This document shows, in pieces, positions 36,773 to 46,276 of a stretch of DNA of 46,276 nucleotides. Position 1 is the stretch's first letter; each line of letters starts with the position of its first letter. The stretch lies in IMG/VR virus record IMGVR_UViG_2623620505_000005. One strand, written 5' to 3'. The stretch comes from a virus (lineage: Duplodnaviria; Heunggongvirae; Uroviricota; Caudoviricetes). The position numbers were made by a program, and so were the translations under genes. A model generated the notes under the pieces. The model saw nothing but the letters and a program-made list of their open reading frames with translations, was not told the origin of the DNA and made no database searches.

Positions 36773-39700
36773 ATGGGTAAAGGCAGCAGTAAGGGGCATA
36801 CCCCGCGCGAAGCGAAGGACAACCTGAAGTCCACGCAACTGCTGAGTGTGATCGATGCCATCAGCGAAGGGCCGGTTGAAGGTCCGGTGGATGGATTAAA
36901 AAGCGTGCTGCTGAACAGTACGCCGGTGCTGGACAGTGAGGGGAATACCAATATATCCGGCGTCACGGTGGTGTTCCGGGCCGGTGAGCAGGAGCAGACA
37001 CCGCCGGAGGGATTTGAATCCTCCGGCTCCGAGACGGTGCTCGGTACAGAAGTGAAATATGACACGCCGATCACCCGGACCATCACGTCGGCAAACATTG
37101 ACCGTCTGCGTTTTACTTTCGGCGTGCAGGCACTGGTGGAAACCACCTCAAAGGGGGACCGGAATCCGTCGGAAGTCCGCCTGCTGGTTCAGATACAACG
37201 TAACGGTGGCTGGGTGACGGAAAAAGACATCACCATTAAGGGAAAAACCACCTCACAGTATCTGGCCTCGGTGGTGGTGGATAACCTGCCGCCGCGCCCG
37301 TTCAATATCCGGATGCGCAGGATGACACCGGACAGCACCACAGACCGGTTGCAGAACAAAACGCTCTGGTCGTCATACACCGAAATCATCGATGTGAAAC
37401 AGGGCTACCCGAACACGGCACTGGTCGGCGTAAAGGTGGATTCGGAGCAGTTCGGCAGCCAGCAGGTGAGTCGTAATTATCATCTTCGCGGGCGCATTCT
37501 GCAGGTGCCGTCGAACTATAACCCGCAGACGTGGCAATACAGCGGTATCTGGGACGGAACGTTTAAGCCGGCATACAGCAACAACCCGGCCTGGTGTCTG
37601 TGGGATATGCTGACCCACCCGCGCTACGGCATGGGGAAACGTCTTGGTGCGGCGGATGTGGATAAATGGGCGCTGTATGTCATCGGCCAGTACTGCGACC
37701 AGTCAGTGCCGGACGGTTTTGGCGGCACGGAGCCGCGCATCACCTGTAATGCCTGGCTGACCACGCAGCGTAAGGCGTGGGATGTGCTCAGTGATTTCTG
37801 CTCGGCGATGCGCTGTATGCCGGTATGGAACGGGCAGACGCTGACGTTCGTGCAGGACCGACCATCAGATAAGGTGTGGACCTATAACCGCAGTAATGTG
37901 GTGATGCCGGATGATGGCGCGCCGTTCCGCTACAGCTTCAGCGCCCTGAAGGACCGCCATAATGCCGTTGAGGTGAACTGGATTGACCCGAACAACGGCT
38001 GGGAGACGGCGACAGAGCTTGTTGAAGATACGCAGGCCATTGCCCGTTACGGTCGTAATGTCACGAAGATGGATGCCTTTGGCTGTACCAGCCGGGGGCA
38101 GGCACACCGCGCCGGGCTGTGGCTGATTAAAACTGAACTGCTGGAGACGCAGACCGTGGATTTCAGCGTGGGTGCTGAAGGGCTTCGCCATGTACCGGGC
38201 GATGTCATTGAAATCTGCGATGATGACTATGCCGGTATCAGCACCGGTGGTCGCGTGCTGGCGGTGAACAGCCAGACCCGGACGCTGACGCTCGACCGTG
38301 AAATCACGCTGCCATCCTCCGGTACCACGCTGATAAGCCTGGTTGACGGAAGTGGTAATCCGGTCAGCGTGGAGGTTCAGTCCGTCACCGACGGACTTAA
38401 GGTGAAAGTGAACCGGGTTCCTGACGGCGTTGCAGAATACAGTGTGTGGGGGCTGAAGTTGCCGACGTTGCGTCAGCGCCTGTTCCGCTGTGTGAGTATC
38501 CGTGAGAACGATGACGGCACGTATGCCATCACTGCCGTGCAGCATGTACCGGAAAAAGAAGCCATCGTGGATAACGGGGCGCACTTTGACGGCGACCAGA
38601 GCAGCACGGTGAATGGTGTCACGCCGCCAGCGGTACAGCACCTGACCGCCGAAGTCACCGCAGACAGCGGGGAATATCAGGTGCTGGCGCGCTGGGACAC
38701 GCCGAAGGTGGTGAAGGGCGTGAGCTTCCTGCTCCGTCTGACCGTAACAGCGGATGACGGCAGTGAGCGGCTGGTCAGCACGGCCCGGACGACGGAAACC
38801 ACATACCGCTTCACGCAACTGGCGCCAGGAAACTACAGGCTGACAGTCCGGGCGGTAAATGCGTGGGGACAGCAGGGCGATCCGGCATCGGTATCGTTCC
38901 GGATTGCCGCACCGGCAGCACCGTCGAGGATTGAGCTGACGCCGGGGTATTTTCAGATAACCGCCACGCCGCATCTTGCGGTTTATGACCCGACGGTACA
39001 GTTTGAGTTCTGGTTCTCGGAAAAGCGGATTACCGATATCAGGCAGGTTGAAACCACAGCCCGCTATCTTGGTACGGCGCTGTACTGGATAGCCGCCAGT
39101 ATCAATATCAAACCGGGCCATGATTATTACTTTTATATCCGCAGTGTGAACACCGTTGGCAAATCGGCATTCGTGGAGGCCGTCGGTCGGGCGAGCGATG
39201 ATGCGGAAGGTTACCTGGATTTTTTCAAAGGCAAGATAACCGAATCCCATCTCGGTAAAGAGCTGCTGGAAAAAGTTGATTTGACGGAGGATAACGCCAG
39301 CAGACTGGATGAGTTTTCGAAAGAGTGGAAGGACGCTAACGATAAGTGGAATGCCATGTGGGGCGTCAAAATTGAGCAGACCAAAGACGGCAAACATTAT
39401 GTCGCGGGTATTGGCCTCAGCATGGAGGACACGGAGGAAGGCAAGCTGAGCCAGTTTCTGGTTGCCGCTAACCGTATCGCGTTTATTGACCCGGCAAACG
39501 GGAATGAAACGCCGATGTTTGTGGCGCAGGGCAACCAGATATTCATGAACGACGTGTTCCTGAAGCGCCTGACGGCCCCCACCATTACCAGCGGTGGAAA
39601 TCCGCCGGTATTTTCCCTGACACCGGACGGGCGGCTGACGGCGAAAAATGCGGATATCAGTGGCAGTGTGAATGCGAACGCCGGGACGCTCAACAATGTC

Positions 39701-40168
39701 ACGATTAACGAGAACTGTCGGGTTCTGGGAAAACTGTCCGCGAACCAGATTGAAGGCGATATTGTTAAAACAGTGGGCAAAGCTTTCCCCCGGGACTCCC
39801 GTGCACCGGAGCGGTGGCCGTCAGGAACCATTACCGTCAGGGTTTATGACGATCAGCCTTTTGACCGGCAAATTGTTATTCCGGCGGTGGCATTCAGCGG
39901 TGCTAAACATGAGCGGGAACATAACGATATTTATTCGTCATGCCGTCTGATAGTGCGGAAAAACGGTGCTGAAATTTATAACTGTACCGCGCGGGATAAT
40001 ACGCTGATTTATACAGGTGTTATTGATATGCCTGCTGGTCGCGGCCACATGACGCTGGAGTTTTCGGTGTCAGCATGGCTGGTAAATGACTGGTATCCCA
40101 CAGCAAGTATCAGTGATTTGCTGGTTGTGGTGATGAAGAAATCCACTGCAGGCATCACGATTAGCTGA
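36773..40168 (+). CDS. J: Central tail fibre / host specificity protein J
   Basis: 1131 aa; lambda gpJ-like from N-terminus to C-terminus. Confidence 0.9.
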
Positions 40169-40187
40169 ATTTTATCACCCAGATACG

Positions 40188-40211
40188 GGCGCCAGAAATG
40201 GCGCCTTTTTT
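40188..40211 (+). terminator. Rho-independent terminator after J
   Basis: GGCGCC-AGAAAT-GGCGCC stem-loop followed by TTTTTT. Confidence 0.6.
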
Positions 40212-40235
40212 ATTGCAGAAAAGCGAGAGGTAATT

Positions 40236-40835
40236 ATGCGTAAAGTTTGTGCAGCCATTTTATCCGCAGCCATCTGTCTGGCCGTATCCGGTGCGCCTGC
40301 ATGGGCGTCTGAGCAGCAGGCCACGCTGAGCGCGGGGTATCTTCATGCCCGGACGAACGCTGTCGGTAGTGATGATCTGAACGGGATTAACGTGAAATAC
40401 CGTTATGAGTTTACGGACACGCTGGGGCTGGTGACGTCATTCAGTTATGTCAATGCCAAAGATGAGCAAAAAACGCATTACAGCGATACCCGCTGGCATG
40501 AAGATTCCGTGCGTAACCGCTGGTTCAGCGTGATGGCGGGGCCGTCTGTGCGCGTGAATGAATGGTTCAGCGCGTATGCGATGGCGGGTGTGGCTTACAG
40601 CCGTGTGTCGACTTTTTCCGGGGATTATATCCGCGTAACTGACAATAAGGGGAAAACGCACGATGTGCTGACCGGAAGTGATGACGGTCGCCACAGCAAC
40701 ACGTCTCTGGCGTGGGGGGCTGGCGTGCAGTTTAACCCGACCGAGTCCGTGGCCATTGATGTCGCTTATGAAGGTTCCGGCAGTGGCGACTGGCGCACTG
40801 ACGGTTTCATCGTGGGTGTCGGTTATAAATTCTGA
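40236..40835 (+). CDS. lom: Lom outer-membrane protein (Ail/OmpX family virulence-associated moron)
   Basis: 199 aa; signal peptide and beta-barrel sequence nearly identical to lambda Lom as I recall it; flanked by its own terminators. Confidence 0.85.
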   Translation: MRKVCAAILSAAICLAVSGAPAWASEQQATLSAGYLHARTNAVGSDDLNGINVKYRYEFTDTLGLVTSFSYVNAKDEQKTHYSDTRWHEDSVRNRWFSVMAGPSVRVNEWFSAYAMAGVAYSRVSTFSGDYIRVTDNKGKTHDVLTGSDDGRHSNTSLAWGAGVQFNPTESVAIDVAYEGSGSGDWRTDGFIVGVGYKF

Positions 40836-40861
40836 TTAGCCAGGTAACACAGTGTTATGAC

Positions 40862-40888
40862 AGCCCGCCGGTTCAGGCGGGCTTTTTT
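40862..40888 (+). terminator. Rho-independent terminator after lom
   Basis: AGCCCGCC-GGTTCA-GGCGGGCT stem-loop followed by TTTTT. Confidence 0.6.
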
Positions 40889-40899
40889 GTGGGGTGAAT

Positions 40900-43197
40900 A
40901 TGGCAGTAAAGATTTCAGGTGTACTGAAAGACGGCACAGGAAAACCGGTACAGAACTGCACAATCCAGCTGAAAGCAAAACGTAACAGTACCACGGTGGT
41001 GGTGAACACGCTGGCCTCAGAAAATCCGGATGAAGCCGGGCGTTACAGCATGGACGTTGAGTACGGTCAGTACAGCGTTATTCTGTTGGTGGAAGGATTC
41101 CCGCCGTCACATGCCGGGACCATCACCGTGTATGAAGATTCCCGACCCGGTACGCTGAATGATTTTCTCGGTGCCATGACGGAGGATGATGTCCGTCCGG
41201 AGGCACTGCGCCGTTTTGAACTGATGGTGGAAGAGGTGGCGCGTAACGCGTCCGCGGTGGCACAGAACACGGCAGCCGCGAAGAAGTCAGCCGGCGATGC
41301 CAGCACATCAGCCCGTGAGGCGGCAACCCATGCGACTGATGCTGCAGACTCAGCACGCGCAGCCAGCACGTCAGCCGGGCAGGCCGCGTCGTCGGCACAG
41401 GAAGCGTCTTCCGGTGCAGAAACGGCATCAGTAAAGGCCACTGAGGCATCAAAAAGTGCAGCCGCTGCAGAGTCCTCGAAAAGCGCGGCGGCCACCAGTG
41501 CTGTTGCCGCGAAAACGTCAGAAACGAATGCGGCAGCGTCACAACAATCAGCCGCCACCTCAGCATCCACCGCGACCGCGAAAGCGTCAGAAGCTGCCAC
41601 CTCAGCCCGTGAGGCGGAGGCCTCAAAAGAGGCAGCAAAATCATCAGAAACGAACGCATCATCAAGCGCCAGTGGTGCAGCCTCCTCGGCAACGGCGGCA
41701 GAAAATGCCGCGAAGGAGGCAAAAACATCCGAGATGAACGCCAGGTCTTCTGAAACGGCAGCAGCACAGAGCGCATCCGCTGCGGCGGGCTCTGAAAAAG
41801 CAGCTGCATCATTGGCCGGCGAGGCATCCGGTAAGGCGGAAGAGGCTGCAGGGAGCGCAGCGGTGGCAGCGCAGAGCAAAAGTTCTGCTGAGTCTGCAGC
41901 AACACGTGCAGAGAATGCGGCCAGACGGGCAGAGGAGATTGCATCTGCTGTGAGCCTGGAGGATGCCAGTACGACCACAAAGGGGGTTGTCAGGCTCAGT
42001 AACCGTACTGACAGTACTTCACAGACAGAGGCCGCCACATCCCTGGCAGTCAGTAACGTCATGAATGAGGTGAAGACAAAAGCGTCACTGGATAGTCCGG
42101 TCTTCACCGGTACCCCTATGACACCGACACCACCGGACGATGCTTCAGGTCTGGAAACAGTGAATGCGGCGTTTGTCCGCAAACTGCTTGCTGCTCTTGT
42201 GGGTTCATCTCCTGAAACCCTGGACACGCTGAACGAACTGGCGGAGGCGCTGGGTAATGACCCGGCGTTTTCCGTAACGATAATGAAGATGCTGGCCGGA
42301 AAACAGCCTTTAAATCCCGTTCTGACTGCGTTAGGCAGTCTTCCATCCGGTGAAGATGGGTTTCCCAGTTTTAGCGGTAACGGGCAGTGTTCTCTGGCTC
42401 CTGTTTCTGAAAAAGGGAAACAGCTGTTGTCACAATCCACAGCCGAAGAGATGTGTGACGTTCTGGGTATCAATGGAAATAGTGGAAACTCAGCAGCAGG
42501 CGGAAATTATGGGCTTCAGTCAGGCATTTATGACAGAACGCAGGGGCGGGCCGCTGTTGCAGGAAGTCTGGGATTCGGGCATATCTTCACAAAAGGTGAC
42601 GTTCTCAGCTTTTCGTCGAAGGAAGTGCTTCTTGACTGGATCTCAAATGCCACACCGGGGCGGTATACGGTCAGCGCTGACTGCGAAATTATACCGGAAG
42701 TACAGTTTACAGGTGTGATTGATTTATTTTTCGCTGATGAGATGCGGAATAACCTTACTGTCCCGCTGATGCTGAAGATGGCTGTTTTTTACGGGATGAA
42801 CGGTGAACTGTATCGGGCAACATACGATGCCATACATGGCCCTTCACTGAGTGAATGGGTGAAAATAAATATTGACCTGTATGATATTGCCAAAATCCTG
42901 AGCATGACCACAAACGATAATTATGGTGATCCGTATGCTGGAAGCATAACACTGGCAGCCTTTAATAGCCGTGGCAGCACTAAAACAGCTAGCGTCGTAC
43001 GAGGGCAATATTACCCGGGCTCCGTCCTTACTCCCGTGGTATTCAGTGTTCCGGAGGGGGCATTATCGTCGCCGAAGATTGGGCTTTCTGGTACAGAGAA
43101 GCACACATTGCCGGGTGTTTACCGTGCATTATCCGGAACCCCGGATTACACCGGAGAAGGTGAGTTTATTATTGCTGCTTTTATAAGGACGATGTGA
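40900..43197 (+). CDS. stf: Side tail fibre protein Stf (lambda-type N-terminus, different C-terminal receptor-binding region)
   Basis: Start at the ATG at 40900 (MAVKISGVLKDG, as in lambda Stf); central Ala/Ser-rich tract; the C-terminal ~300 aa do not match lambda Stf as I recall it. Confidence 0.8.
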   Translation: MAVKISGVLKDGTGKPVQNCTIQLKAKRNSTTVVVNTLASENPDEAGRYSMDVEYGQYSVILLVEGFPPSHAGTITVYEDSRPGTLNDFLGAMTEDDVRPEALRRFELMVEEVARNASAVAQNTAAAKKSAGDASTSAREAATHATDAADSARAASTSAGQAASSAQEASSGAETASVKATEASKSAAAAESSKSAAATSAVAAKTSETNAAASQQSAATSASTATAKASEAATSAREAEASKEAAKSSETNASSSASGAASSATAAENAAKEAKTSEMNARSSETAAAQSASAAAGSEKAAASLAGEASGKAEEAAGSAAVAAQSKSSAESAATRAENAARRAEEIASAVSLEDASTTTKGVVRLSNRTDSTSQTEAATSLAVSNVMNEVKTKASLDSPVFTGTPMTPTPPDDASGLETVNAAFVRKLLAALVGSSPETLDTLNELAEALGNDPAFSVTIMKMLAGKQPLNPVLTALGSLPSGEDGFPSFSGNGQCSLAPVSEKGKQLLSQSTAEEMCDVLGINGNSGNSAAGGNYGLQSGIYDRTQGRAAVAGSLGFGHIFTKGDVLSFSSKEVLLDWISNATPGRYTVSADCEIIPEVQFTGVIDLFFADEMRNNLTVPLMLKMAVFYGMNGELYRATYDAIHGPSLSEWVKINIDLYDIAKILSMTTNDNYGDPYAGSITLAAFNSRGSTKTASVVRGQYYPGSVLTPVVFSVPEGALSSPKIGLSGTEKHTLPGVYRALSGTPDYTGEGEFIIAAFIRTM

Positions 43198-43763
43198 TGA
43201 AAATAAAAAAAATCAGCGAACAAAGGTATCTTGAAACCGGAGATGTTGACTGCATGGTCGAGTTTTCAGGTATGGAAATGCCACTTCCATACACAGCTTC
43301 GGCAAATGATACAGCAGAAACTGGCCGGCAAATCTGGCAGGAACTGCAGAGTGGCAGATGGGGTGAAATCGCCCCGTTCACAGTCACGCCTGAAGTTATT
43401 GCCGCAGCCAGAGATGCCAAAAAGTGGGAAATCGAAGCCTGGCGCACAGAACAGGAAGCGCAGCCGTTCACATTCGAATGGAACGGACACACCTGGAATG
43501 GCGGCCCCGACTCGCTGGCCCGCCTTTACCCGGTGGTAATGGCTGCAGGGGCTGACTCAGGGCAGTGGGACGTTATGACATGGAGTGATGCTGATAATCA
43601 GCAGGTGAAACTGTCGATGACGGAACTGGAGGAGCTGGCTGCAGCTATGGCGCAGGCGCAGGTTGATCGCAATAATGAGATTTATCGTCATCAGCGTGAA
43701 ATGAAAGAGGAACTGAGCAATCTCCTGGATTTGAAGCAGGTTAGGGAGTTCAGTCCAGAATAA
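43194..43763 (+). CDS. Putative tail fibre assembly chaperone cognate to the Stf C-terminal module
   Basis: 189 aa; ATGA overlap with the stf stop (translational coupling); Trp-rich; no lambda Tfa signature. Confidence 0.45.
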   Translation: MMKIKKISEQRYLETGDVDCMVEFSGMEMPLPYTASANDTAETGRQIWQELQSGRWGEIAPFTVTPEVIAAARDAKKWEIEAWRTEQEAQPFTFEWNGHTWNGGPDSLARLYPVVMAAGADSGQWDVMTWSDADNQQVKLSMTELEELAAAMAQAQVDRNNEIYRHQREMKEELSNLLDLKQVREFSPE

Positions 43764-43856
43764 GAAAAAACGTAGTACATCGTATTCAAGAGGATCTATG
43801 CTGGCATCGTAGCTGTTTTTAAACAGTAAGTAGCCGTTGAAGGTCACAGGGGAAAA

Positions 43857-44219
43857 ATGCTCTTTGACTTGGCTTCCGGGGACGCACTATTTATCTCTGA
43901 ACCAGGCCCATTAGCGGAAAATGTCACCTGGTTGTCGCCGGAAGGGGAATATCAGAAGTGGAACGGTACAGCCTGGGTGAAAGATGCAGAAGCAGAAAAA
44001 CTATTCCGGATCCGGGAGGCGGAAGAAACAAAAAACAGCCTGATGCAGGTAGCCAGTGAGCATATAGCGCCGCTTCAGGATGCTGTAGATCTGGAGATCG
44101 CAACGGAGGAAGAAAATTCGTTGCTGGAAGCCTGGAAAAAGTATCGGGTGTTGCTGAACCGTGTTGATACATCAACTGCACCTGATATTGAGTGGCCGGA
44201 AGAACCAGACACAATGTAA
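43857..44219 (+). CDS. tfa: Tail fibre assembly protein Tfa, lambda-type, N-terminally truncated remnant
   Basis: 120 aa corresponding to roughly residues 75-194 of lambda Tfa (GDALFISE ... [20 protein letters not shown]); the N-terminal ~74 residues are missing. Confidence 0.6.
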
Positions 44220-44220
44220 G

Positions 44221-44269
44221 CAAAAAAGAAAAACCGCAGACACGACGTATGCAGGACGTGCTGCGGTTT
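44221..44269 (-). terminator. Terminator for the leftward two-gene operon at the right end (also lies after tfa)
   Basis: 9-bp stem AAACCGCAG / CTGCGGTTT; on the minus strand the stem is followed by UUCUUUUUUG. Confidence 0.55.
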
Positions 44270-44384
44270 GGCTAGTAAACTTTTGATAGTGCGAGTATTG
44301 AATGATTTCCAGCCATTACTCATTTTACGCATTTCACGCGCAAGAGAAATTGAATTTTATTCCTCTGTCACCACATGACGGGGA

Positions 44385-45143
44385 TTAATATTCTGGATTT
44401 TTTATTTCTAAATCAGATAAAGCATTAATTCTTATTTTTTCTAAGGCTTTATCCATGGCCCCCTTGATTCTGTATCCATAATCATCCGGTTCTTCATATT
44501 CCTGTGGGGACGGATTTGTACCAATATTCTCAATTAATTCATTTAAAATAACAGTTACTTCTTTATTAAGAAGGACTGCTTTAGTTAACATCATCTCTGT
44601 TAATGCTGTGAAGGCTAGGCTAAGTTTCTGTTGTAGCTCTTTATTTTTTAATTTAAGGTCTTCATCGTTTAGTGCTTTATCACGGTCTTCGTGAGCCTGT
44701 TGTACTTCATCCCAAAACTGCTTTTCTTGTTCTTGATTAAAATATCCTTGATAACTATTGGCTACATATGTTGGCATCATGTGAATCTCAATAATTTCAA
44801 ATTCATTATCAGCCCATTTTTTTATACTAAGTAACTGAGTGTAAATGTACTCATACATATCGTACTTTTTTTGCCAGATTTGTTGAGAAATCCACAACTC
44901 AGAAGTAATCTTTTTTTCTATATCTTTGATAGTTGTTGTATTTAATGCTAACTGCTTTCTGAGTATTTCATAGTTAGCGTTGGTAGCAGAAATTTTTGCT
45001 TTTTCAGTTATAAAAGAAACAATAAAGTTCACTATGAGAGCTGCAATAATAATAGCGAAGCTCAACCCTAAAATCTCTGTGGTTGAGAAATTAGATGACT
45101 GTAATGCTTTGATAAGTTCAAAAAACTGTTTTTCTGTGAGCAT
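44385..45143 (-). CDS. Hypothetical membrane-anchored protein, downstream gene of a right-arm accessory operon
   Basis: 252 aa; one N-terminal hydrophobic helix (ILGLSFAIIIAALIVNFIVSFI) then a Lys/Glu-rich, probably coiled-coil region; AT-rich; no recognised domain. Confidence 0.6.
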   Translation of the reverse strand: MLTEKQFFELIKALQSSNFSTTEILGLSFAIIIAALIVNFIVSFITEKAKISATNANYEILRKQLALNTTTIKDIEKKITSELWISQQIWQKKYDMYEYIYTQLLSIKKWADNEFEIIEIHMMPTYVANSYQGYFNQEQEKQFWDEVQQAHEDRDKALNDEDLKLKNKELQQKLSLAFTALTEMMLTKAVLLNKEVTVILNELIENIGTNPSPQEYEEPDDYGYRIKGAMDKALEKIRINALSDLEIKNPEY

Positions 45144-45241
45144 GGTGCCTTACCAAAAATTAAGACTGTTATCTATATAAAAATGTTACCCAAGAGGGAT
45201 TGTAATGAAATAACAAACCGGCACATTGGCCGGTTTGAAGT

Positions 45242-46276
45242 TCAAGGGGGTGAGATTGTAGAGGCGTTACCTTGTTCTATCACACCAGACCTAATCTTAT
45301 AACTACCAAGGATGTTGACCGTTTTATTATTTTTCATCGCGTCAAAAATTAAGCCTATTTCATCAGGATCATTGATAAAACTGGTATCAACATAGATCGG
45401 GAATGAATCATCACCTGTTGGCTCATGGCAGCTTAACGTTAGCTTATCGGCTGAGCGTTTTATACTATCAATGACAACTTCCAATGTTTGCTGCTCTGAC
45501 TTAGCCTTTTCAATTGGGTTCTTGATGATTTCTTGAACCTGACCTTGCGAAAGCTCAATATTGCTGGCCCCGCGGATCGTCACTTTGTCTGCATCAGATG
45601 CACCTTTAAGAACTCCAGTGTATGCCTTAGCTGTGTGCTCTTGGATACCTTCGGCGCGCTCTATCGTATCAATACCTTCATGTGCTTTTATTGCAGACAG
45701 CATACCATCGCGTAGAATTGTCATCCGCTCGGATTCTGCTCGCTGTTTTGCTTCTTCCAGTTGTAACTCAATAGTTTTGGTTTCGACTTGTGTCTGATGA
45801 TCTAAGTAGGACGTACCGACCCATGCGCCGCCTAAAACTAAGACAGCAAACAGGAAACACATTGTTTTCTGTCTTGGGCTCATACCTTGTGTTACCTTCT
45901 CAAATGCGTTACCAAAGGAATCAATAAGTTCTTTAACTGAGGTGATAATTTCTGTGCAGCCAGGATTGATAGTAAAAACCAACTCTGCAGCTTCTCGATC
46001 CTCAGCAGTGAGCTTCTGTAAGTTAGAGGTTTTGTACTTGATTAGAGTAAAAACCTTGTACATCTCAGTTTGAAATTCACAGATACCCTGTGCCAAACTT
46101 GCAGGCAGAGTACCATTATACTTATCTTCATCACCAAAAAATTTGAAATCAATACTTTCTAAGAAGTTTAACTTCAAATTTTCAATGTGGATTTCTTCGC
46201 CTGAAATAACTCGTCCGAAAATATTTTCTATATCATCAATATCATTGATTTCATAGGCCTGAATTGCATCTTCCAT
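45242..46276 (-). CDS. Hypothetical protein with a central transmembrane segment, upstream gene of the right-arm accessory operon
   Basis: 344 aa; central hydrophobic helix (MCFLFAVLVLGGAWVGTSYL) followed by a coiled-coil-like region; the start codon is at the last base of the window, so the 5' end may be incomplete. Confidence 0.55.
   Translation of the reverse strand: MEDAIQAYEINDIDDIENIFGRVISGEEIHIENLKLNFLESIDFKFFGDEDKYNGTLPASLAQGICEFQTEMYKVFTLIKYKTSNLQKLTAEDREAAELVFTINPGCTEIITSVKELIDSFGNAFEKVTQGMSPRQKTMCFLFAVLVLGGAWVGTSYLDHQTQVETKTIELQLEEAKQRAESERMTILRDGMLSAIKAHEGIDTIERAEGIQEHTAKAYTGVLKGASDADKVTIRGASNIELSQGQVQEIIKNPIEKAKSEQQTLEVVIDSIKRSADKLTLSCHEPTGDDSFPIYVDTSFINDPDEIGLIFDAMKNNKTVNILGSYKIRSGVIEQGNASTISPP

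Follow-up and report, generated by a model that had tools for sequence, protein, structure and literature searches.

A side tail fibre tip and chaperone gene of another fibre family beside a broken lambda-type tfa in a lambda-like E. coli prophage

Introduction

Horizontal trade of tail-fibre tips along with their chaperones is a long-known theme, reportedly described by Haggard-Ljungquist in 1992. Among the systems closest to the locus studied here are the L56/L57 fibre genes of phage phiP27, with which Rac-SA53 tail3/tail4 and SerU-LTIIb stf/stf2 are grouped.

Phage lambda exchanges DNA by recombination with defective prophages over stf and tfa; for Rac, a third of the crossovers on the right-hand side lie in tfa (PMC3945230). 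Tfa is described, in a passage of PMC7882524 that cites North et al. 2019, as a variable fibre-binding N-domain joined to a conserved C-domain. Proteins with a DUF4376 domain serve other fibres. Experiments show that fibres need the protein of Alteromonas phage V22 (gp27) and that of a Campylobacter CJIE1-like prophage as chaperones (PMC7289586, PMC7882524), and PMC10579305 also reports DUF4376 proteins in this role. Homology between DUF4376 and Tfa is asserted in PMC7882524.

Here we analyse a stretch of DNA of 46,276 nucleotides (the window). It comes from a lambda-like E. coli prophage in which the tip of the side tail fibre and the chaperone gene belong to another fibre family and lie beside a broken lambda-type tfa. 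The segment in question lies at the right-hand end of the prophage late operon; the prophage is lambdoid and integrated beside prfC, and the window contains a full-length set of ORFs sized like lambdoid late genes.

Results

The ORF list and the PGAP annotation give the order J (36773-40168), lom (40236-40835), stf (40900-43197), as in lambda. The stf gene and its two parts are as follows.

40900..43197, + strand: stf, chimeric side tail fibre gene; intact ORF of 765 aa from ATG 40900, with Pfam phage_tail_N, downstream of J and lom
40900..42483, + strand: lambda-type part of Stf (aa 1-528, by BLASTP), with N-terminal attachment domain, Ala/Ser-rich shaft and conserved pre-tip region
42484..43194, + strand: foreign receptor-binding tip (Stf aa ~529-765) of the phiP27 L56 / phrog_2636 family

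The ORF list puts the start of stf at GTG 40894 (767 aa), whereas the lambda-equivalent start is ATG 40900 (765 aa). The prophage tail fibre N-terminal domain (PF08400, phage_tail_N) is matched over its whole profile (1-134 of 134, E=2.8e-72) by aa 3-136 of the GTG-started ORF. Residues 1-528 align with residues 1-528 of Ur-lambda Stf at 71% identity (BLASTP, E=3e-167), consistent with the claim of a preliminary description of this DNA that the N-terminus and the Ala/Ser-rich shaft follow lambda. Specifically, identity is 90% for aa 1-135, 79% for aa 136-366 and 44% for aa 367-528, and nucleotide similarity to lambda stops at 41999.

Beyond aa 528, BLASTP against Ur-lambda Stf gives no similarity; homology to lambda Stf 529-774, the mark of a lambda-type C-terminus, is absent. 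Neither Collar (PF07484) nor the Phage_fiber repeats, both present in lambda Stf, gave a Pfam match in the window Stf. The pairwise comparison thus excludes an alignment to lambda Stf along the whole length. Because the lambda match ends at aa 528, the foreign part is the last ~238 aa (nt ~42477/42484-43194). The preliminary description had correctly called the C-terminus unlike lambda Stf and had overestimated its length at ~300 aa.

The phrog_2636 profile matches the tip at E=1.5e-43 (profile 327-567 of 568) and phiP27 L56 matches it at E=6e-20 with only 26-30% identity, which identifies the donor fibre family as phiP27 L56-type. In matches that span most of the query, the tip domain is placed at the extreme C-terminus of the protein. 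Deposited phage genomes contain no tip more than 31% identical to that of the window, and a PDB sequence search gave no match for the tip or for the chaperone described below. The tip is 100% conserved in three different prophages. AlphaFold modelled it with a pLDDT of 31.6 from the single sequence and of 85.2 with a 27-sequence alignment. The tip would set the surface receptor bound by the side fibres; lambda Stf uses OmpC.

The end of stf overlaps the next gene.

43197..43763, + strand: DUF4376-family tail-fibre chaperone gene, 188 aa, start overlapping the stf stop (PF14301, phrog_1141, phiP27 L57)

The overlap reads GTGATG, with the stf stop TGA at 43195-97, the chaperone ATG at 43197 and AAGGA 7 nt upstream. 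GTG 43194 is an alternative start; ATG 43197 is favoured by PGAP and by the lengths of homologues. A gene overlapping the stf stop, as first described, is therefore present, with the sequence GTGATG in place of ATGA and 188 aa in place of 189. The PF14301 match (E=8.4e-17; 62 bits against a cutoff of 25) covers aa 72-176, the C-terminal half. The protein also matches phrog_1141 at E=1.7e-79, shares 76% identity with phiP27 L57, and has relatives in 1,791 clusters at E<=1e-3, mainly from E. coli. Because DUF4376 is common in E. coli and members elsewhere are proven tail-fibre chaperones, the chaperone is not "new", as it had been called. Its assignment as a coupled downstream chaperone is supported by the PF14301 match, by the GTGATG overlap and, by analogy, by the chaperones proven in other phages. 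By the same analogy, it would be an intermolecular chaperone that trimerises and folds the Stf tip. A DUF4376 gene lies 3' of all three divergent fibres with the same tip, adjoining in two and one gene off in the third.

The DUF4376-Tfa homology of PMC7882524 was not reproduced, because a profile-profile comparison of E. coli DUF4376 with Tfa found no similarity (probability 0.6%, with shallow alignments, Neff 1.5). PHROG families 1807 and 1795 are matched by both the DUF4376 protein and the Tfa-like ORF downstream, and natural Tfa/DUF4376 chimeras therefore exist. Among seven fibre/chaperone pairs, the chaperone N-terminus and the tip show no co-divergence (Spearman 0.15, p=0.51), so the idea of a "specificity N-domain" in the chaperone has physical linkage in close relatives as its sole basis.

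The chaperone gene is followed by a remnant of tfa.

43764..43798, + strand: decayed copy of the terminator-like sequence found after phiP27 L57; blastn similarity to phiP27 runs past the chaperone stop to 43791
43799..44219, + strand: tfa relic running from lambda tfa codon ~51 to the stop codon; 12 nt are deleted and a TAA stands in frame at 43827-43829
43857..44219, + strand: 120-aa ORF inside the relic, with the C-terminal domain Caudo_TAP only (PF02413)
44231..44329, + strand: hairpin and ~100-nt conserved "end of late operon" element

Against intact tfa alleles the alignment begins at 43799/43800, showing 78-80% identity and a gap of ~10-12 nt (MAFFT alignment and translation), and strong (90%) homology begins at 43835. 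Alignment to lambda stf and to intact tfa alleles thus places the breakpoints at about Stf aa 528 and at ~43799, lambda tfa codon ~51. The relic starts ~58 nt upstream of the 120-aa ORF; its codons ~51-66 in this interval are degenerate and include the TAA. The nearest intact allele is at most 93.5% identical to the relic. PGAP annotates 43836-44219 in strain A17 as a pseudogene, "tail fiber assembly protein, missing N-terminus".

The 120-aa ORF matches residues 76-191 of lambda Tfa at 89% identity (E=5e-75), which bears out the claim that it corresponds only to the C-terminal ~120 aa of that protein. Caudo_TAP is matched at E=4.7e-43 over profile positions 6-130 of 131 and occupies aa 72-191 in lambda Tfa; residues 52-118 of the ORF match residues 112-175 of TfaMu (5YVQ_B). 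The ORF starts at lambda Tfa residue 75 and has neither the full length of ~190-194 aa nor the N-terminal ~70 aa. Its closest relatives (91-93% identity) are proteins of 189-194 aa matched in their C-terminal part, and hence it does not represent a shorter Tfa family in full length. Exactly this 120-aa form is shared by 18 sequences in one cluster, amid many differently truncated or chimeric tfa ORFs.

Between stf and the 120-aa ORF lie the DUF4376 gene and 93 nt, and the ORF is not coupled to a cognate fibre gene. Its ATG stands where intact alleles encode Thr (a Thr-to-Met change) and is preceded by a Shine-Dalgarno-like AGGGGA. In the first 39 codons, 8 of the 21 codons changed from intact alleles are non-synonymous; codons 40-128 carry five synonymous substitutions and one non-synonymous. 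A terminator scan and RNA folding from the chaperone gene to the relic revealed no convincing terminator and no strong remaining hairpin, which leaves no argument from transcriptional isolation of the relic. Because the ORF is intact and has an ATG with AGGGGA, no terminator upstream and mostly synonymous changes past codon 39, its expression and some function are conceivable. It is most probably dispensable. Judged by their BLASTP and Pfam E-values, the matches of Stf, the DUF4376 gene and the 120-aa ORF all lie far above chance.

The element at 44231..44329 folds at -23 kcal/mol (z=-1.8), is homologous to phiP27 sequence 3' of L57, and has a second copy, 89% identical, immediately to the right of the window in strain A17. 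The two low-GC genes downstream of the relic gave no PADLOC match and no Pfam match. An origin of the tfa fragment as the remnant of an invertible segment (Mu G / P1 C type) was rejected: the relic has the orientation of stf and no large inverted fibre gene adjoins it (ORFs 38000-46276), and the missing Pfam matches of the two downstream genes are a second ground.

Comparison with other prophages shows which blocks are shared.

42477..43363, + strand: recently shared cassette of the tip and the first ~56 chaperone codons; 2 mismatches to AREA_497 in 887 nt

The flanks of the cassette are ~87% (42093-42476) and ~86% (43364-43706) identical to AREA_497, a lambdoid prophage with the order J-lom-stf-DUF4376, an identical tip and no tfa. 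The tip/DUF4376 module therefore does not need tfa. In strain 2017.10.01CC, a sibling prophage at prfC encodes an intact Stf (1,007 aa) and a Tfa of 194 aa, and downstream its genes are those of the window. It differs from the window by 31 mismatches in 43843-44120 and by none in 44121-46276. This rise in identity from 92% to 100% at 44120/44121 places a crossover within tfa; either the window prophage or the sibling could be the recombinant.

The junction of DUF4376 gene and tfa relic is found in 14 of 5,426 complete E. coli genomes, and the relic is cut to ~110 nt in 12 of the 14, the A17-type relic being the longest version known. In 12 genomes the junction sits in another, degraded prophage beside uspF/ompN, with one mismatch across 43793-43904. 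The preliminary description had proposed a recombination that swapped tip and chaperone and truncated tfa. The exchange and the loss of the tfa 5' end are borne out; the event is not confined to this prophage, given the 12 genomes with the junction at another locus.

In strain A17, PGAP annotates only the 5' 1,104 nt of stf, as a pseudogene "missing C-terminus", and leaves 42004-43196 unannotated. The 870-aa homologue in ZYB62 is annotated as intact. The pseudogene call is best explained by an evidence protein that does not reach the chimeric Stf C-terminus.

Discussion

We consider it very likely that the locus encodes a chimeric Stf with a phiP27-type tip and a DUF4376 chaperone, that this module has spread by homologous recombination, and that the adjacent tfa is a non-cognate relic. 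The module would move between prophages with a left crossover where Stf is conserved, in the shaft or the pre-tip region, and a right crossover either in the C-terminal half of the chaperone gene, also conserved, or, for a larger block, in the conserved tfa 3' half. An older illegitimate join would have brought tfa, from about codon 51 on, up against the terminator region that follows the DUF4376 gene, possibly at a GGCTGGC microhomology proposed from one alignment. The tfa fragment would now act mainly as a homology arm.

A simpler history, in which a single illegitimate recombination in the window prophage itself brought in tip and chaperone and beheaded the resident tfa in situ, agrees with the order of the elements, with the intact tfa followed by identical downstream genes in sibling prophages at prfC, and with the A17-type relic as the longest known version of the junction. 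We think this history rather unlikely, since 12 genomes carry the junction together with the 5' portion of the relic, with one mismatch in 43793-43904, in the other prophage beside uspF/ompN. In addition, the 31 differences from the sibling tfa that give way to 100% identity from 44121 point to a homologous crossover inside tfa, and intact alleles are at most 93.5% identical.

Two further readings concern whether the genes work. The 120-aa ORF might be a working stand-alone Tfa C-domain protein, either a generic oligomerisation helper beside DUF4376 or a helper for another fibre; its complete Caudo_TAP domain, its ATG with AGGGGA and no terminator between, the mainly synonymous substitutions in codons 40-128 and the natural Tfa/DUF4376 chimeras (PHROG 1807, 1795) are consistent with this. 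It is nevertheless improbable. The ORF lacks the N-terminal ~70 residues, the fibre-binding domain according to the passage of PMC7882524 cited above, and has a stop codon just upstream and non-synonymous changes in 8 of the 21 changed codons among its first 39. Both AREA_497 and phiP27 have the module without tfa, the ORF is destroyed in 12 of the 14 junction-bearing genomes, and its exact form is one small cluster among the many truncated and fused tfa ORFs that decaying prophages typically carry. That the whole fibre locus is dead, with stf a pseudogene and the module decaying prophage DNA, is still more improbable. The PGAP "missing C-terminus" tag on the A17 stf with 42004-43196 unannotated, and the degraded state of most other prophages that carry the junction, speak for it; the uninterrupted 765-aa ORF, the intact ZYB62 homologue of 870 aa (PGAP), the tip conserved at 100% across three different prophages and the full-length set of late-gene-sized ORFs speak against it.

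The prophage with its mobile module and tfa relic is a clean yet ordinary case of host-range module trading among phages. It confirms rather than extends known biology, because the exchange of tip and chaperone is long established (Haggard-Ljungquist 1992; De Paepe 2014). Its value is threefold. It documents a lambda-type Stf body on a phiP27-type tip with DUF4376 instead of Tfa as chaperone, a pairing undescribed in the searchable literature. The block edges, defined at nucleotide resolution, could guide fibre engineering: on the left the tip begins at Stf aa ~527, and on the right the block ends at chaperone codon ~56 or within the tfa 3' half. Finally, it exposes an annotation problem, an intact chimeric stf labelled a pseudogene by PGAP.

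A broader generalisation would be that the exchange unit of this fibre family is the tip plus the first ~56 DUF4376 residues, that DUF4376 is two-part like Tfa, with an N-terminal adaptor linked to the tip and a C-terminal assembly domain that can be exchanged, and that the Tfa C-domain ORF might add a generic assembly activity. We regard it as unlikely; if true, the block edges found here would be a design rule to retarget lambda-type side fibres.

Compared with lambda stf-tfa, the locus has the same place after J and lom, 71% identity over Stf aa 1-528 and an ORF 89% identical to Tfa 76-191. Unlike lambda, it has a tip of unrelated sequence without Collar and Phage_fiber repeats, a DUF4376 protein instead of Tfa as chaperone, and a 5'-truncated relic as tfa. 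The second fibre set of phiP27 is similar in that L56 shares phage_tail_N and the tip family, L57 overlaps the end of L56 alike, and the sequence 3' of L57 is homologous to window sequence both after the chaperone gene and after tfa. In contrast, phiP27 is an Stx phage with a contractile tail, a short 490-aa fibre, a tip only 26-30% identical and no tfa relic after L57.

The DUF4376 chaperones V22 gp27, phage A5 gp9 and the CJIE1-like protein share the domain in the C-terminal half, a size of ~190-240 aa and a gene directly 3' of the fibre gene, and experiments show that a functional fibre depends on them; their sequences are distant, and their hosts and fibre types differ. The recombination of lambda with Rac and Qin (De Paepe et al. 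2014, PMC3945230) likewise swaps the fibre region through relaxed homologous recombination, its right-hand crossovers lying in tfa, and the step from 92% to 100% at 44120/44121 matches this; the block in the window differs in bearing another chaperone family and a pre-existing illegitimate junction.

Organisation of the late-operon end

The window is a lambdoid prophage. Only two positions between 40000 and its right end differ from Escherichia coli A17, a strain (otter, Mexico) in which the prophage adjoins prfC. The exchange of a tail-fibre module in it is genuine and well delimited, comprising a lambda-type side tail fibre (Stf) body, a phiP27-type tip, a putative DUF4376 chaperone gene and a relic of tfa, the lambda tail fibre assembly gene. 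The features are as follows.

36773-40168: J, late-operon end
40236-40835: lom, late-operon end
40900-43197: stf, late-operon end
43197-43763: DUF4376 gene, 188/189 aa
43857-44219: 120-aa ORF of the tfa relic
44385-45143, minus strand: low-GC gene, 252 aa
45242-46276, minus strand: low-GC gene, 344 aa

The two minus-strand genes, with a GC content of 31-45% against ~50-60% for the tail genes, look like moron-like cargo; sibling prfC prophages carry identical copies. Neither protein has a match in Pfam or PADLOC; the longer one (344 aa) hits phrog_6191, a family of unknown function (E = 2e-92). A ~100-nt direct repeat of 89% identity flanks both genes (window 44231-44329 and A17 locus L003 10322-10420, the latter about 345 nt past the right end of the window), and in phiP27 the same element lies 3' of L57, directly before attR. 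Insertion of the two-gene cassette seems to have duplicated this element, which resembles a conserved 'end of late operon' sequence.

A foreign tip on a lambda-type Stf body

BLASTP aligns window Stf aa 1-528 with residues 1-528 of Ur-lambda Stf (KT232076; 71% identity, E = 3e-167) and finds no similarity between the two past aa 528. By segment, the attachment domain (aa 1-135) is 90% identical to lambda, the Ala/Ser-rich shaft (aa 136-366) 79% and aa 367-528 44%, and the lambda nucleotide similarity of stf ends at 41999. Beyond aa 528, lambda Stf carries the Collar and Phage_fiber domains, which are absent from window Stf. The foreign part is therefore the last ~238 aa. The preliminary description was right about the lambda-like N-terminus and shaft and the non-lambda C-terminus; its length of ~300 aa for the latter was too great. 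Window stf is a 765-aa ORF without interruption. In A17, RefSeq/PGAP annotates no tip and treats just the first 1,104 nt of stf (AOY70_RS03370) as a pseudogene ('missing C-terminus'), probably an annotation artefact of the chimeric C-terminus; the ZYB62 homologue is annotated as intact.

The tip matches the last 240 profile positions of PHROG family 2636 ('tail fiber protein'; E = 1.5e-43) and the C-terminal 250 aa of phiP27 fibre L56 (26.5% identity, E = 6e-20), which also shares the N-terminal phage_tail_N domain with window Stf. When 1.84 billion representative proteins were searched exhaustively with HMMER, 87 clusters matched. Matches covering most of the query place the domain at the extreme C-terminus of fibres of 250-1,030 aa, and a minority cover the first half only, at an internal position. 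Only 13 records in a set of 50,697 deposited phage genomes carry a homologue, with identity never above 31%. The AlphaFold model is confident (pLDDT 85.2, 27-sequence alignment), and we take the tip to be a receptor-binding head that has no close relative of solved structure. The first half of the tip (residues ~20-145 of window 42454-43194; Stf aa ~538-663) is also found alone inside larger fibres: representative proteins as long as 1,302 aa have it at an internal site such as 190-337, and the 1,324-aa Goslar fibre, from a jumbo phage, is a further example. Two separable subdomains thus seem to make up the tip.

The putative DUF4376 chaperone

The chaperone gene overlaps the stf stop as described, in a GTGATG rather than an ATGA arrangement (stf TGA at 43195-97, chaperone ATG at 43197, AAGGA 7 nt 5'). 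Its 188-aa product (189 aa if GTG 43194 is used) matches PF14301 (DUF4376; E = 8e-17, aa 72-176) and phrog_1141 (E = 1.7e-79) and is 76% identical to phiP27 L57, whose gene follows and overlaps L56 as the window gene does stf. The family is very large, with 1,791 clusters at E <= 1e-3, mostly from E. coli, with members of 187-193 aa. Downstream of all three distant tip homologues examined (33-37% identity, from unrelated contigs) there is a DUF4376 gene, adjacent in two and one gene away in the third. DUF4376 proteins of Alteromonas phage V22 (gp27) and of a Campylobacter CJIE1-like prophage are required intermolecular fibre chaperones (PMC7289586, PMC10579305, PMC7882524). The 188-aa protein is thus a putative fibre chaperone of a known, abundant family, coupled as previously suggested but not new.

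At the shallow depth of the alignments used, profile comparison of the DUF4376 and Tfa families shows no similarity. The profiles phrog_1807 and phrog_1795 are matched, in adjacent parts, by window 43197-43760 (DUF4376) and 43857-44216 (Tfa relic); in phrog_1807, Tfa aa 4-57 correspond to positions 77-129 and DUF4376 aa 69-185 to positions 125-232, which suggests natural chimeric chaperones joining Tfa-like and DUF4376 segments.

A damaged tfa relic

The 120-aa ORF corresponds to lambda Tfa residues 76-191 (89% identity, E = 5e-75), as had been proposed. It is not a full-length member of a shorter Tfa family, since its nearest relatives (91-93% identity) have 189-194 aa. Pfam Caudo_TAP spans aa 72-191 of lambda Tfa; the ORF aligns to positions 6-130 of the 131-position profile, with its residues 52-118 corresponding to TfaMu (5YVQ_B) 112-175. 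The ORF therefore keeps the conserved C-terminal domain without the N-terminal ~70 residues, the part reported to bind the fibre (North et al. 2019, as related in PMC7882524). In A17, PGAP labels this stretch a pseudogene of a tail fibre assembly protein, 'missing N-terminus'.

The remnant extends further, and is more damaged, than the ORF implied. In sensitive blastn, tfa homology begins at 43799/43800 (lambda codon ~51); this 5' stretch is 78-80% identical to intact alleles and has a ~12-nt deletion, TAA interrupts the tfa frame at 43827-29, and the restart ATG of the ORF is the product of a Thr-to-Met change. The stretch from the chaperone stop to 43798 is a decayed version of the terminator-like sequence found 3' of phiP27 L57; a better copy comes after tfa at 44231-44329. 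This decayed flank points to an old illegitimate join by which the DUF4376 gene, together with its 3' flank, would have become attached to tfa at about codon 51, perhaps through a short microhomology (GGCTGGC).

The exact 120-aa form constitutes one cluster of 18 sequences. The other matches include many truncations of 112-155 aa and many Nu1, gpA, Z or I fragments fused to the tfa C-terminal region, typical products of prophage decay. Among them are forms of 137-146 aa (P0213, P0214, P0219, P0235) and fusions with Minor_tail_Z, Nu1, tail protein I or terminase gpA (P0211, P0215, P0229, P0255, P0258), which are encoded in many E. coli genomes. Junctions recur around 'FVAVFNS' and 'KTVYDV' in Tfa; the relic of the window begins in the same 'AGFVAVF' area, and tfa may have a deletion or recombination hotspot here.

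History of the exchange

The DUF4376/tfa-relic junction is present in 14 of 5,426 complete E. coli genomes. Two carriers (A17, ARS-C101) have the 120-aa ORF; the other 12 have it in a degraded prophage close to uspF/ompN, with the relic recut near 43946 where it meets a YadA-like gene. Its occurrence in a degraded prophage elsewhere argues that the junction is older than the present arrangement and was transferred between prophages. The module exchange of the preliminary description thus stands, but the junction is shared with other prophages and was probably not made in place. No intact tfa allele exceeds 93.5% identity to the relic.

A function for the 120-aa ORF is improbable. The ORF is intact, an AGGGGA motif precedes its ATG, no terminator lies upstream of it, and changes in codons 40-128 are mostly synonymous (five, against one non-synonymous). 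However, the ORF lacks the N-terminal ~70 residues and has a stop codon and a deletion directly 5', 8 of the 21 changed codons among its first 39 are non-synonymous, the relic is lost in 12 of the 14 junction carriers, and the module exists without tfa in phiP27 and the lambdoid prophage AREA_497.

AREA_497 has the order J-lom-stf-DUF4376, without any tfa. It differs from the window by only two mismatches in 42477-43363, an 887-nt block containing the tip and the first ~56 chaperone codons, while identity on the two sides is ~87% and ~86%. On this alignment, the near-identical block in diverged flanks shows that a smaller cassette has spread recently; its left edge matches the start of the tip domain. 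The chaperone N-terminus as a tip-specific adaptor is not supported: in seven fibre/chaperone pairs it does not co-diverge with the tip (Spearman 0.15, p = 0.51); with one exception, pairs whose tips are 30-48% identical retain 46-67% identity in the chaperone N-terminus. The edge at codon 56 may thus reflect only where homology permitted crossover.

The sibling prophage at prfC in strain 2017.10.01CC has Stf (1,007 aa) and Tfa (194 aa) both intact and the identical two downstream genes. It differs from the window by 31 mismatches in 43843-44120 and by none in the remaining 2,156 nt of the window (from 44121), the pattern that a homologous crossover within the 3' half of tfa leaves. Either the window or the 2017.10.01CC prophage may be the recombinant lineage.

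Comparison with known systems

The core of the preliminary interpretation is upheld, with a known and abundant chaperone family, a shorter foreign segment, a longer and more damaged relic and a shared junction as corrections. The event is of a known kind; just such a crossover in tfa has been seen experimentally in lambda x Rac recombinants (De Paepe et al., PMC3945230).
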